Of a stretch of DNA of 64,000 nt, positions 5,665 to 7,516 are shown piece by piece (position 1 is the stretch's first letter; each line of letters opens with the position of its first letter). Below the pieces are notes generated by a model. It did no database searches, had not been told where the DNA came from, and worked only from the letters and a program-made list of their open reading frames with translations. Position numbers and translations under genes: made by a program. The stretch lies in the IMG/VR virus record IMGVR_UViG_3300045988_077276, positions 6,783 to 70,782 of that record; one strand, given 5' to 3'. The stretch comes from a virus.

Positions 5665-5696
5665 TTGACTTATGTTTGTATTTATGTTATTATAAT
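5665..5696 (+). promoter_or_regulatory. sigma-70-like promoter of the RNA island
   Basis: TTGACT (5665-5670), 17-nt spacer, TGt-TATTAT (5685-5693), with an overlapping TATAAT at 5691-5696. Confidence 0.6.
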
Positions 5697-5699
5697 ACT

Positions 5700-6347
5700 G
5701 TAGTTAAGTGCTACGCCTCCTTTCTTAACATAGCCGATGCAAGTGGTTGCCCCTACTTGCGTTGGCACACATGGACTGTTGCTGGGTTATGGTCAAAATT
5801 TGCATAAATTGTCATGTCTGACCGACAGGTTCGATTCCTGTGCAGTTCTACTTTTTCGCTACTGCAAGCGAACAAACGTTTATCGAAAGTGTGCTTGTTG
5901 TACACATCCAAAAAGACAACACGTGTTAATTGATTACACGACAACAAATCAAACATACGGTGCTTGCTGCCGTCACTCAGTAAGCGTTATATGTGACGAG
6001 AAAACATATCAGAGATAACTGTAAACCATCACTAGAGATGTAAAAAAAGCAAGTTTCTGATAGCCTTGATAAAACTAACAGGGTTGTGCCATTCCATAAT
6101 CGCACCGCAAGACAATGCGACAACAATCATATGTAGAAATGTAGGTTTTATTACCATACTACGAACTACGAATTTCTTACTGCCGTCAGACCAGACGTTA
6201 AAATCCGCAGTCGTTGAAGTGCGATAAGCAACGAAGTCTATAGACATCTACCGCCGATGCGTATAGACGTATACACACATGAAGACACCTAGATTGCAAT
6301 CTTTGGGTGGTTGAATGATGCAACAAGGTTTGCATGGCGGTAGACAT
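5700..6347 (+). ncRNA. structured non-coding leader or large ncRNA candidate
   Basis: No credible ORF. Many hairpins (gttaag/cttaac, gcaagt/acttgc, cgtcac/gtgacg) and a long-range helix 6247-6260 with 6332-6344. Confidence 0.4.
5773..5849 (+). ncRNA. tRNA-sized tRNA-like element with non-canonical core
   Basis: 7-bp acceptor (ggactgt/gcagttc) and a canonical T-arm (acagg-ttcgatt-cctgt). No standard D or anticodon arm could be drawn (aattt-gcat-aaatt has a 4-nt loop). Confidence 0.3.
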
Positions 6348-6406
6348 GGAGAGTTAGCTTAGTAGGTAAAGCATTATAGACGTTGGTTCGACCCCAACAT
6401 TCTCCA
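6348..6406 (+). ncRNA. anticodon-arm-less tRNA-like RNA 1 (59 nt)
   Basis: Acceptor ggagagt/attctcc, D-arm gctt-agtaggta-aagc, 9-nt linker, T-arm gttgg-ttcgacc-ccaac. No anticodon stem-loop and no encoded CCA. Confidence 0.55.
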
Positions 6407-6416
6407 CAAGGTAAAT

Positions 6417-6441
6417 CCACTATGGGTCGCAACTATGGTGG
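6417..6441 (+). ncRNA. conserved hairpin, copy 1 (loop GGGTCGCAACT)
   Basis: Stem ccactat/atggtgg with an 11-nt loop, followed by TCGG. Covaries with copy 2. Confidence 0.5.
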
Positions 6442-6505
6442 TCGGCATGAGCGGGTCGCCGTTAGAGAGGAGTCAGTCTCGAGGTGCCTCCTCACCTACT
6501 CACAT

Positions 6506-6622
6506 GGGGAATTAGTTTAACGGTAAAACACTATGAGGGGTGAAACACTGGTTCGATTCCAGTAAAGTGATGGTTCACAGCACTATTAGTAGAAGATATT
6601 GGTTCGACCCCAATATTTCCCG
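6506..6622 (+). ncRNA. tRNA-like RNA 2 with 68-nt insert in place of the anticodon arm
   Basis: Acceptor ggggaat/atttccc, D-arm gttt-aacggta-aaac, T-arm attgg-ttcgacc-ccaat. The insert holds a second T-arm-like hairpin (actgg-ttcgatt-ccagt) and is flanked by a cactat direct repeat. Confidence 0.5.
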
Positions 6623-6637
6623 TAATTACAATTAAAT

Positions 6638-6662
6638 CTGCTGTGGGTCGCTACCATAGTAG
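6638..6662 (+). ncRNA. conserved hairpin, copy 2 (loop GGGTCGCTACC)
   Basis: Stem ctgctgt/atagtag with an 11-nt loop, followed by TCGG. The stem sequence differs from copy 1 but pairing is preserved. Confidence 0.5.
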
Positions 6663-6726
6663 TCGGAAGTGGGTATCTTTCGTTAAGGGGTGAACGGACG
6701 CTAGCTGTTTATCCGATACCTGCCGA

Positions 6727-6803
6727 AGCGGAGTAGTCCAATGGAAGAGACACTGGTCTCATAAGCCAGTATAGTACGGGTTCAAGTCCCGTCTCCGCTC
6801 CCA
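6727..6803 (+). tRNA. tRNA-Met/Ile2 (anticodon CAT), CCA encoded
   Basis: Acceptor agcggag/ctccgct, anticodon arm ctggt-ctCATaa-gccag, T-arm acggg-ttcaagt-cccgt, 3' CCA. By hand fold the variable loop looks 6 nt. Confidence 0.8.
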
Positions 6804-6806
6804 TAC

Positions 6807-6896
6807 GGAGGGTTGTCAGAGTGGTTTATTGAGCCTCTTTGCTAAAGAGGTGTTGTTTAATAGCAACCACAGGTTCGAATCCTGTACTCTCCTCCA
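6807..6896 (+). tRNA. tRNA-Ser (anticodon GCT), CCA encoded
   Basis: Acceptor ggagggt/actctcc, anticodon arm cctct-ttGCTaa-agagg, long variable arm (gttg...caac), T-arm acagg-ttcgaat-cctgt. Confidence 0.85.
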
Positions 6897-6901
6897 CTTA
6901 T

Positions 6902-6976
6902 TCTTGGGTAGTTCAATGGTAGAGCGTCTGGCTGTTAACCAGAATGTTGGGGGTTCGAGTCCCTCCCCAAGAGCCA
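6902..6976 (+). tRNA. tRNA-Asn (anticodon GTT), CCA encoded
   Basis: Acceptor tcttggg/cccaaga, anticodon arm tctgg-ctGTTaa-ccaga, T-arm ggggg-ttcgagt-ccctc. Confidence 0.85.
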
Positions 6977-6979
6977 CAT

Positions 6980-7069
6980 GGAAAGTTGGCAGAGTCTGGT
7001 TTATTGCATCGGTCTTGAAAACCGAAGAACAGTAATGTTCCGTGAGTTCAAATCTCACACTTTCCTCCA
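6980..7069 (+). tRNA. tRNA-Ser (anticodon TGA), CCA encoded
   Basis: Acceptor ggaaagt/actttcc, anticodon arm tcggt-ctTGAaa-accga, long variable arm (gaac...gttc), T-arm gtgag-ttcaaat-ctcac. Confidence 0.85.
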
Positions 7070-7248
7070 TTCGTTGTATCAACGATACCATAGCCACGAT
7101 ACGTAATGGTACGCCATCGTATCACCGAATGGGTTACTTAAGGGTTTCTCATTCGGCTGGCATACTTCGTGTTGATTGGGTAAATTCCCAAGATACACGC
7201 ATAATTTTTCCTCCTGTTGACTTTGGGTTAAAATCCAAAGTCATGGAT
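7070..7248 (+). ncRNA. structured spacer RNA
   Basis: Consecutive hairpins (gatacg/cgtatc, ccgaatg/cattcgg, ttggg/cccaa, ctttgg/ccaaag). The track ORF here (7042-7263) runs out of tRNA-Ser and is not credible. Confidence 0.35.
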
Positions 7249-7305
7249 GCACACATAGTTTAACGGTAAAACAAATTAATGATGGTTCAAATCCATCTGT
7301 GTGCA
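7249..7305 (+). ncRNA. anticodon-arm-less tRNA-like RNA 3 (57 nt)
   Basis: Acceptor gcacaca/tgtgtgc (perfect), D-arm gttt-aacggta-aaac (identical to RNA 2), 8-nt linker, T-arm gatgg-ttcaaat-ccatc. No CCA. Confidence 0.55.
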
Positions 7306-7460
7306 GCTAGCTAAAATCCAGCGGTAGTTATCAGATGCCGTTGGTATAAAATCCCGTACCGAGGGGTATTGGTCGTTGAGTTGCGGCATCGTGAAATATG
7401 GAACGTAAGCCATTCCGCAACAAAAATATCATCATAAGTGTTTATTCTGAACACAAACAA

Positions 7461-7516
7461 AAGAAGACATCTAAGTATTTTTACCTCCTTTCGTACTTAG
7501 GTGTCTTCTTTTTGTT
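7461..7516 (+). terminator. intrinsic terminator closing the RNA island
   Basis: 17-bp stem aagaagacatctaagta/tacttaggtgtcttctt with one G-U pair, followed by a T-run. Confidence 0.75.

Follow-up and report, generated by a model that had tools for sequence, protein, structure and literature searches.

A 64,000-nucleotide (nt) stretch of viral DNA, positions 6,783 to 70,782 of IMG/VR virus record IMGVR_UViG_3300045988_077276 and hereafter the window, comes from an uncultured phage of about 65–72 kb and carries, at 5665–7516 on the + strand, an island of transfer RNA (tRNA) genes and other structured RNAs. The island is a single promoter-to-terminator unit, and its non-tRNA segments (A, B, M and the terminator in the list below) are clearly under selection at the RNA level. 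These segments are bracketed by four tRNA-like elements in which no CCA is encoded and the anticodon arm is missing or replaced. On balance, we incline to the view that the island specifies a tRNA-punctuated precursor, which RNase P and RNase Z would cut into tRNAs and stable non-coding RNAs (ncRNAs), some of the latter being small RNAs (sRNAs) that would pair with Shine-Dalgarno sequences. The parts of the island are, in order:

5665–5693, + strand: sigma-70-type promoter, with TTGACT (5665–5670), 17 nt and TATTAT (5688–5693), the latter preceded by TG (TG-n-TATTAT).
5697–5772, + strand: leader RNA of about 76 nt, with the unpaired, invariant GCCUCCUUUCUUAACAUAG and a covarying hairpin at 5733–5766, ending ...CACAU just before T1.
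5773–5849, + strand: tRNA-like element T1, with a 7-bp acceptor stem, a canonical T arm (ACAGG-UUCGAUU-CCUGU) and an aberrant core; no anticodon arm, no CCA.
5850–6347, + strand: RNA A, a structured ncRNA of about 400–500 nt, which includes a long-range helix and whose 3′ domain (6247–6344) is a four-way junction.
6348–6406, + strand: tRNA-like element Y, 59 nt, with acceptor, D and T arms; a 9-nt linker replaces the anticodon arm; no CCA.
6407–6505, + strand: module M, copy 1, about 98 nt, starting UAAAUCC, with the hairpin loop GUCGCAA and a second structured half in which CCUCCUC is paired (87.9 bits with model R2).
6506–6622, + strand: tRNA-like element M3, 117 nt, with the acceptor/D/T frame of Y and, for the anticodon arm, a branch of about 60 nt bearing a second T-arm-like hairpin.
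6623–6726, + strand: module M, copy 2, a repeat of copy 1 (92.1 bits with model R2; folding z = −3.1).
6727–6803, + strand: tRNA-Met(CAU), found by ARAGORN and Rfam, with encoded CCA.
6807–6896, + strand: tRNA-Ser(GCU), found by ARAGORN and Rfam, with encoded CCA.
6902–6976, + strand: tRNA-Asn(GUU), found by ARAGORN and Rfam, with encoded CCA.
6980–7069, + strand: tRNA-Ser(UGA), found by ARAGORN and Rfam, with encoded CCA.
7070–7248, + strand: RNA B, a multi-helix domain with the invariant ACGCAUAAUUUUUCCUCCU and a hairpin behind it, about 180 nt in all.
7249–7305, + strand: tRNA-like element X, 57 nt, with acceptor, D and T arms and an 8–9-nt linker; no anticodon arm, no CCA.
7306–7458, + strand: RNA C, starting GCUAAAAUCC, with the conserved hairpin GUUGCGG...CCGCAAC and loop AACGUAAG.
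7459–7516, + strand: intrinsic terminator, a stem of about 18 bp with a 16-nt loop, then a U run.

The island is flanked by genes for a DnaB-like helicase (4491–5648, + strand) and an exonuclease (7560–8438, + strand). Searches with both flanking proteins retrieved about 35 IMG/VR contigs, mostly of 45–72 kb, whose helicases are 79–98% identical to that of the window, the outlier L034 standing at 52%. The samples behind these contigs are taken to be of the human microbiome (IMG numbers 7000000xxx, presumably HMP, as well as 3300007220, 3300008xxx and 3300045988). A preliminary description of this DNA, made from the letters alone, had taken the region for a structured, mostly non-tRNA RNA unit akin to the tRNA cluster of phage T4, and had named an absence of conservation and covariation in related phages as the outcome that would speak against it. 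The opposite was found: all 31 distinct related islands examined lie at the same locus and in the same orientation, with lengths of 1044–2169 nt, and their modules are conserved and covary through many compensatory changes. The extended −10 promoter of that description is real, TTGAC and TGnTATAAT both being invariant in 28 relatives. So is the long-stem terminator, whose arms (7459–7477 and 7494–7512, 19 nt each) are 95% complementary and enclose a 16-nt loop ahead of the T run; 9 of 16 pairs show compensatory changes among the relatives, and the G+C-containing hairpin followed by a U tract is the make-up of an intrinsic terminator. A simple terminator scanner missed it because it accepted only loops of up to 8 nt, and a 16-nt loop is atypical. 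ARAGORN called exactly four tRNAs in the whole window, all in the island and totalling 332 nt, in agreement with the roughly 330 nt of CCA-encoding Met, Ser, Asn and Ser tRNAs described before, so that about 80% of the ~1.82-kb island transcript is not canonical tRNA. The phrase ‘mostly not tRNA’ stands to that extent; what it overlooked is that four tRNA-like elements lie inside the remainder, two of them above the Rfam gathering score (48 and 52 bits). The claim that the region holds no credible open reading frame (ORF) likewise survives in large part. Among the 15 island ORFs of at least 35 amino acids (aa), 14 are intact, at 80% or more of their length, in at most 5 of the 31 related islands; the exception, on the minus strand at 7149–7256, contains a doubtful 17-codon ORF. 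Besides this 17-codon ORF in B, no conserved ORF was found on either strand of the island across those 31.

Three features were absent from the preliminary description, namely the arm-less bracketing elements, the invariant motifs resembling an anti-Shine-Dalgarno sequence, and a cassette-like shuffling between nearly identical phages. Thus, the order of modules differs among genomes, with breakpoints that coincide with the ends of tRNAs and tRNA-like elements, and the tRNA repertoire varies even where the flanking proteins are 97–98% identical. Ser(UGA) is nearly universal across the related islands and Ser(GCU) and Asn are common; Met occurs only in the window, and Thr, Cys, Gln, Tyr, Leu, Phe, Trp and Ile tRNAs are variably present. 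Conservation along the island peaks at 5946–6346 and 7066–7260, which are retained in 25–30 of 30 relatives. Cultured phages offer little for comparison: a megablast search against GenBank phages matched only tRNA-Ser and tRNA-Asn fragments, and the helicase and terminase are just 21–37% identical to those of cultured phages, so no host can be assigned.

Of the tRNA-like elements, Y and X are the most complete. Both match the Rfam tRNA family RF00005 end to end, above its gathering score of 29 (48.4 bits for Y and 51.8 for X; 63.9 and 68.1 bits with model R1), with 15 model positions deleted and 1–2 nt left for the anticodon arm. They possess the acceptor stem, the D arm with G18 and G19, and the T arm with a UUCRA loop of a canonical tRNA; they have neither the anticodon arm with its 7-nt loop nor the 3′ CCA. 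M3, of which 7 distinct sequences (the window’s included) were seen in 8 islands, all with the same frame as Y, gives partial matches of 27.6 bits with Rfam and 43 bits with model R1 (model positions 7–51). T1 scores 17 bits, to tRNA-Sec only. Its acceptor stem (GGACUGU/ACAGUUC vs GGGUC/GACCC) and its T stem (ACAGG/CCUGU vs UUGGG/CCCAA) change in a compensatory manner, as judged by eye, between the close and the divergent clade of relatives. ARAGORN calls none of the four.

That these shapes are maintained is indicated by the alignment A7, which combines 18 arm-less elements, nine from this phage family and nine from unrelated phage contigs, and to which Y contributes covariation. In A7, 97.2% of cells are paired and covariation is seen at all 7 acceptor pairs; compensatory changes keep the acceptor, T and D stems 95–100% paired. 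The covariation exceeds that in all 500 shuffles and all slid controls, as it does for the alignments of B and the terminator. The invariant nucleotides of A7, U8, A14, G18, G19, the T-loop UUC and A58, are those that build the tRNA elbow. An encoded CCA further separates the two kinds of element: in the 32 islands (the window and the 31 related ones) it is present in 105 of 116 ARAGORN tRNAs vs 0 of 30 short tRNA-like elements. At the site of X, each relative examined has a CCA-less tRNA-like element that always retains the acceptor stem and T arm, while the rest takes several forms: 56–57 nt and arm-less, 63–64 nt with a 3-bp mini-hairpin, about 71–76 nt with an odd anticodon loop, or called by ARAGORN as Asn or Ile. 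Since the anticodon region varies and the acceptor and T portions are kept, selection acts on the part that RNase P and RNase Z recognise, not on decoding.

The elements adjoin A, M, B and C without a spacer. They thus unite a tRNA-shaped fold, a lack of decoding capacity and direct abutment on other RNAs, the combination seen in punctuation of the t-element and mascRNA type. All four keep the 7-bp acceptor stem and the T arm by which these nucleases, RNase P and RNase Z, recognise a tRNA, and three of the four keep the D arm and elbow nucleotides as well. In addition, all four have U at position −1 and G at +1, which, with the missing CCA, is consistent with cleavage by these two enzymes.

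A related element of 68–71 nt occurs in other islands. ARAGORN calls it ‘tRNA-Cys(GCA)’ in L004, L010 and L012, and the same element goes uncalled in L003, L005 and L014. It has the acceptor stem CAUGUGU/ACACAUG, discriminator A and no CCA, and an anticodon stem of 4 bp or of 3 bp and a mismatch, and probably does not decode either.

Arm-less elements are not confined to this phage family. With a search pattern comprising a D arm, a 7–13-nt linker and a T arm, 29 stretches were recovered from IMG/VR, 17 of them outside the family, including contigs of 214–268 kb; 13 of these 17 lie within tRNA arrays on the same strand, and the outside elements were confirmed with Rfam and model R1. The jumbo-phage array L118 holds five tRNA-like elements of 59–66 nt amid nine tRNAs. 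From 596 Gb of genomes of bacteria and archaea, the same pattern recovered only 8, 2 of them inside tRNA operons of Mycoplasmatota metagenome-assembled genomes (MAGs). In the open-access full-text literature we found no description of arm-less tRNA-like elements in phage tRNA arrays, none of a tRNA elbow kept after a clean deletion of the anticodon arm, none of the recurrence of such a form across unrelated phage arrays, and none of arm-less elements combined with covarying ncRNAs and motifs of the 16S tail in one operon.

Among the cellular examples, arm-less elements scoring 56–58 bits with model R1 lie at L123:6303–6359 and L126:3655–3711, between tRNA-Ser and tRNA-Lys in 11-tRNA operons of Mycoplasmatota and Izimaplasma MAGs; the L123 copy is directly followed by CCA. 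Two phage arrays, on contigs of 116 and 214 kb, also have an IS605-orfB-I RNA (TnpB guide-RNA family; 165–191 bits) beside them, at L105:748–963 and L108:1998–2191.

The segments between the tRNAs and tRNA-like elements are themselves structured, as the preliminary description had suspected from the density of hairpins, the repeated modules and the long-range complementarity. Folding z-scores against shuffled sequence are −4.5 for the leader, −3.6 for A, −6.2 for B and −6.0 for C; A contains a long-range helix, and direct repeats connect the two M copies and the tRNA-like elements. Compensatory changes affect 14 of 78 predicted pairs in the core of A (5957–6347), which is present in 27–30 of 30 relatives, the part at 5850–5956 being confined to the close clade. 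In the 3′ domain of A (6247–6344), where a 9-bp stem closes three hairpins, they affect 9 of 33 predicted pairs. The corresponding figures are 11 of 25 for M, which in relatives usually stands directly 5′ of tRNA-Ser, and 13 of 38 for B, with 98.6% of its alignment cells paired and a score that none of 500 shuffles attains. Two further hairpins change in a compensatory way by eye, that of the leader (GCCGAUGCAAGUGG/CUACUUGCGUUGGC in the close clade vs GUCAACGGA/UCCGUUGAC in the divergent clade) and that of C, with a GCUGUGG...CCACAGC counterpart in L023 and L032. Many of the pairs in A, B and the terminator are G-U on the + strand and would be A-C mismatches on the opposite strand; therefore, the + strand RNA is the object of selection.

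None of these RNAs belongs to a described family. Rfam, which the preliminary description had proposed to consult, was searched with the whole window at gathering scores and with 5500–7700 at expectation values (E) up to 10 under permissive filters, and in the island no family other than tRNA matched even at E up to 10. Hits to FinP, SNORD95, lactis-plasmid, a plastid untranslated region and YrlA lay far below threshold and were dismissed as noise. Outside this phage family, A was not found by an exact pattern scan of IMG/VR and had 0 hits in bacterial and archaeal genome contigs; B was not found by a degenerate pattern scan of IMG/VR; and M was not found either, model R2 having been run only on loci already retrieved. 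We also considered whether the 3′ domain of A is a tRNA-like cloverleaf and rejected this, since the signatures of a T-loop and a D-loop are missing and the loop at its centre is a UGCA tetraloop.

Two smaller regularities were seen within these RNAs. The motif (U)AAAAUCC / UAAAUCY occurs six times in the window (6199, 6412, 6633, 7229, 7313 and 7346), always unpaired or in a loop, and often opens a module that directly follows a tRNA-like element; its sequence is similar to the 3′ half of a T-loop. Furthermore, 15 nt in a hairpin region of A (6019–6033) are 93% complementary to 6566–6580 in the inserted branch of M3, with a weaker match to the T arm of X; this complementarity is not co-conserved in L033, where M3 is present and that part of A is absent.

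A short pyrimidine motif recurs in three places: GCCUCCUUUCUUAAC in the leader (CCUCC at 5716–5720), invariant in 28 sequences; UUUUUCCUCCUG in B (CCUCC at 7210–7214), invariant in 25; and UUUUACCUCCUUUCG in the terminator loop (CCUCC at 7484–7488), also invariant in 25, the terminator loop being invariant throughout its 20-sequence alignment. All three persist unchanged across both clades while their flanks vary and the surrounding stems covary. In the 64-kb window, 4 of the 6 CCTCCT occurrences on the + strand, and both occurrences of CCTCCTTTC, fall within the island. The 16S rRNA of most non-proteobacterial bacteria has CCUCCUUUC as its 3′ tail, and the CCUCCU(UUC) of leader, B and terminator loop matches 9–10 nt of the 16S rRNA 3′ end. 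CCUCC is predicted to be unpaired with a probability of about 1.0 both in the leader and in the terminator loop; for B the five values are 0.98, 0.98, 0.31, 0.21 and 0.16, the motif being single-stranded in the consensus fold and partly open in the single-sequence fold. By these predicted folds, an exposed motif complementary to GGAGG, as in C-rich sRNAs, is thus present in the leader and terminator loop and partially so in B.

An enrichment of CCUCC as a general trait of unrelated phage tRNA arrays was examined and rejected, as similar motifs were seen in only one jumbo-phage lineage. There, the array spacers at L118:2700–4300 (minus strand), and those of L105 and L108, contain GCCUCCUUACAAUGU and AACCUCCUUCUUUUUG, similar to the motifs of the leader and the terminator loop, and both tRNA-Ser genes of L118 are preceded by non-tRNA leaders of about 140–160 nt.

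From these signals, folds and motifs we infer transcription of the island, its cleavage, the stability of the products and their pairing with Shine-Dalgarno sequences. From a single strong promoter, transcription would run for about 1.82 kb to the intrinsic terminator and yield a precursor with four decoding tRNAs and four tRNA-like elements bracketing the non-tRNA RNAs. The tRNA-like elements have lost the anticodon arm and encode no CCA, which argues that they are punctuation marks and not decoders. RNase P would cut 5′ of every tRNA and tRNA-like element, and RNase Z after the discriminator base of the CCA-less elements, the absence of CCA permitting this; the 3′ ends of the CCA-bearing tRNAs, which stand 3–5 nt apart, would be trimmed by exonucleases. 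Six species could thereby be released: the leader (~76 nt), A (~500 nt), two M RNAs (~100 nt each), B (~180 nt) and C joined to the terminator (~210 nt). The leader, B and the C-plus-terminator RNA would each expose the CCUCCU(UUC) motif. By analogy with the C-rich loops of Firmicute sRNAs, these three are most likely base-pairing sRNAs that would cover the Shine-Dalgarno regions of their target mRNAs and thereby prevent initiation. A broader version, which we put forward tentatively and rate clearly less probable than the punctuated precursor itself, is that phage arrays commonly hold unannotated arm-less ‘punctuation tRNAs’ that excise ncRNAs, and that in this phage family a set of 16S-tail mimics from one operon reprograms initiation in the course of infection, alongside a new large RNA, A, comparable to GOLLD or ROOL.

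Several observations weigh against the punctuated precursor with its pairing sRNAs. The phage’s own genes use GGAGG ribosome-binding sites, 37 of them on the + strand, so a general Shine-Dalgarno sponge would hit the phage as well, and no site in the 64-kb window has extended complementarity to the single strand of B or the terminator loop. By our own comparison, the leader motif is also, we assume, loosely boxA-like, i.e., akin to an antitermination element. In the outlier L034, a protein gene replaces the tRNAs and CCUCC is absent. For T1 and M3, folding is on a par with that of shuffled sequence (z about −1). The A7 sequences were picked by pattern and tRNA model, and pairing is therefore favoured in their D and T arms, not in the acceptor stem. 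The RNase Z step would require a host that has this enzyme. Lastly, the reverse complement of the B motif forms a perfect AGGAGG-7 nt-ATG start of the 17-codon minus-strand ORF, whose length is kept in about 20 relatives.

Other explanations can be arranged, in decreasing weight, as decoys, an ornate RNA, a tRNA graveyard, a minus-strand micro-ORF and a DNA-level element. That the arm-less elements are decoys is the best of these and still unlikely; they would titrate a protein that binds the acceptor, T arm or elbow (a defence nuclease, toxin, modification enzyme, CCA-adding enzyme or EF-Tu), and the release of neighbouring RNAs would be incidental. It would account for the occurrence of such elements in unrelated phage tRNA arrays (29 IMG/VR stretches vs 8 in 596 Gb of cellular genomes) and for the conservation of a complete D arm and elbow, beyond what a minimal RNase P substrate needs, and the phage has other counter-defence content, e.g., a Tad2-like domain. 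However, the positions of the elements exactly bracket conserved ncRNAs and no partner protein was identified in the window; and anticodon nucleases, the best-known tRNA-directed defences, cannot be decoyed by an RNA that has no anticodon loop. We think it less likely again that A, perhaps with B and M, is an RNA of the GOLLD/ROOL type acting by its three-dimensional architecture (self-assembly, ribosome binding), the CCUCC copies serving the same role, for instance as mimics of the 16S tail towards a ribosomal or rRNA-processing factor, with no mRNA pairing. GOLLD and ROOL are large structured ncRNAs of phages and prophages, without known function, often beside or interleaved with tRNA islands; tRNAs sometimes lie within GOLLD, and GOLLD pulls down ribosomes (PMC12286853). 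The island resembles them in being phage-encoded with its large RNA next to or within a tRNA island; A, at 400–500 nt with long-range helices and a four-way junction, has the right character, and a 9–10-nt match to the 16S 3′ end exceeds a generic C-rich seed. Against this, A is smaller than those RNAs and has no covariance-model match to GOLLD or ROOL (5500–7700, E up to 10), A itself contains no CCUCC, and A and B in the pattern scans, as well as M within the loci on which R2 was run, were found only in this phage family.

The possibility that the island is a fast-turnover cassette array, in which tRNA-like elements are decaying pseudogenes and the rest is non-functional spacer, is improbable in our judgement. 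Such turnover fits the differing tRNA repertoires of phages with 97–98% identical flanking proteins, the graded series from tRNA to short elements, which includes the CCA-less 68–71-nt ‘Cys(GCA)’ and ARAGORN ‘???’ calls, and the weak folding z-scores of modules M2, M3 and T1. Yet pseudogenes should lose their pairing, and here the stems remain 95–100% paired with invariant elbow nucleotides; A, B, M and the terminator covary and are retained in 25–30 of 30 relatives, and the CCUCC motifs stay invariant amid changing flanks. Slightly lower on our scale, and likewise improbable, is a coding role for the minus strand, by which UUUUUCCUCCU in B is merely the complement of a ribosome-binding site (AGGAGGAAAAAUU-AUG) for the 17-aa peptide MRVSWEFTQSTRSMPAE at 7202–7149. 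The Shine-Dalgarno sequence, 7-nt spacer and ATG recur in nearly all relatives, and in the roughly 20 with exactly 17 codons the start MR(V/I)S and end TR(C/S)MP(A/S)E are conserved. However, the frame is shifted to 30–50 aa in 5 relatives, cut to 1–10 aa in 5 and extended by loss of the stop to 22 and 41 aa in 2, and compensatory changes in the hairpin replace the whole middle of the peptide (WEFTQS / LVSPKS / WTVTQD), as an RNA stem predicts. Moreover, no minus-strand promoter was found in 5000–8200, no conserved ORF lies behind the equivalent ‘Shine-Dalgarno’ complements of the leader and terminator copies, and the peptide is not hydrophobic and hence, in our own judgement, no type I toxin. 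Least probable is that the island is mainly a replication origin or other protein-binding DNA. Its location in a replication module (DnaB-like helicase, exonuclease, RusA and deoxynucleoside monophosphate kinase) and its repeats would suit this, but the G-U covariation, A-C on the other strand, speaks for strand-specific selection on RNA, a promoter and a terminator frame the region, and no iteron-like tandem array was seen.

As far as the Rfam search and the published descriptions go, the island lies outside the families of T4 RNAC/RNAD, GOLLD/ROOL, t-elements and C-rich sRNAs, although each of its ingredients has a precedent. The T4 cluster has two small RNAs among eight tRNAs. These stable non-tRNA RNAs, RNAC and RNAD (species 1 and 2), are co-transcribed with the tRNAs, and their function is unknown (PMC3014915). 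The island shares with this cluster the presence of non-tRNA RNAs within a phage tRNA unit; compared by description, it differs in being about 80% non-canonical-tRNA, with a 400–500-nt RNA, arm-less elements and anti-Shine-Dalgarno motifs.

For the punctuation itself, the closest parallels are non-decoding tRNA shapes elsewhere. MALAT1 mascRNA and the TMERs of murid herpesvirus 68 (tRNA-like/pre-miRNA units) are cut by RNase P and/or RNase Z and thereby set the ends of neighbouring RNAs, and it is RNase P and RNase Z that make the cuts at t-elements. Plant mitochondrial t-elements are described as tRNA-like structures contributing to 5′ and 3′ transcript end formation (PMC1920247). The island elements resemble all of these in being tRNA-shaped, non-decoding and adjacent to other RNAs. 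Unlike these eukaryotic, organellar and animal-virus examples, they stand in a bacteriophage array, where their cleavage is a proposal, and the whole anticodon arm has been cleanly deleted with a canonical D arm kept in three of four.

YrlA and the tRNA-like domain of tmRNA likewise combine an acceptor-like stem and a T arm with a region like a D arm, and lack an anticodon arm. The topology of YrlA is the reverse of that of the island elements, its 5′ and 3′ ends being located in the Ro-binding stem and its acceptor-like stem being capped. The best hit to YrlA (RF02553) in 5500–7700 reached 15.6 bits vs a gathering score of 69 (E = 9.7) and lay on true tRNAs. No tmRNA was found in the window by ARAGORN and there was no Rfam hit to it; nor is there a G3:U70 pair, the third acceptor pairs being A-U, A-U and G-C.

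Among sRNAs, LhrC carries three CU-rich sites, in a loop, a single strand and the terminator loop, all able to bind a Shine-Dalgarno region (PMC4132741), and the UCCC motif of C-rich sRNAs is described in PMC2790875. Like the Firmicute RNAIII, RsaE/RoxS and LhrC, the island repeats a C-rich motif in loops, single strands and a terminator loop, where it complements the Shine-Dalgarno sequence. Unlike in those RNAs, the motif is CCUCCU(UUC), not UCCC, is spread over three RNAs of one putative precursor and has no Rfam match.

Codon usage or an escape from anticodon nucleases is the usual explanation for islands of tRNA genes, which are among the commonest non-coding features of large phages. If the arm-less elements are processing signals, phages would independently have reached a tRNA punctuation known from mitochondria, MALAT1 and a herpesvirus, and a whole class of elements would have been missed by standard tRNA finders. 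Should the RNAs bearing CCUCCUUUC target Shine-Dalgarno sequences, or else factors recognising the 16S tail, they would amount to phage-encoded interference with translation initiation, and would provide a testable handle on the clustering of ornate RNAs with phage tRNAs.

A few minor observations concern the relatives and the surroundings of the island. In L034 (7160–9290), there are no tRNAs; a promoter is followed by about 550 nt of non-coding sequence, whose start (UUCCUUUCAAUGU plus a hairpin) resembles the leader of the related islands, and then by a 491-aa ORF with the Pfam domains DUF2828 and DUF7788. A link to Ro and Y RNAs through this DUF2828 protein was considered and discarded: it has no homologue in the window and no sequence match to a solved structure in the PDB. 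Elsewhere in the window, the proteins encoded at 2014–2802, 14972–15745 and 20473–20994 have Tad2-like (Thoeris anti-defence), YadA-like outer-membrane anchor and AAA_33 domains, respectively; the outer-membrane anchor suggests a diderm host and, taken together with a 16S tail of the CCUCCUUUC type, points towards non-proteobacterial diderms, for instance the Negativicutes. Downstream of the island, a perfect consensus promoter (TTGACA, 17 nt, TATAAT) at window 7525–7562 ends 7 nt upstream of the exonuclease ATG (7560), and therefore the exonuclease mRNA looks leaderless in the close clade. In the divergent clade, this mRNA has a leader of about 20 nt that carries the ribosome-binding site AGCAGGUGA.

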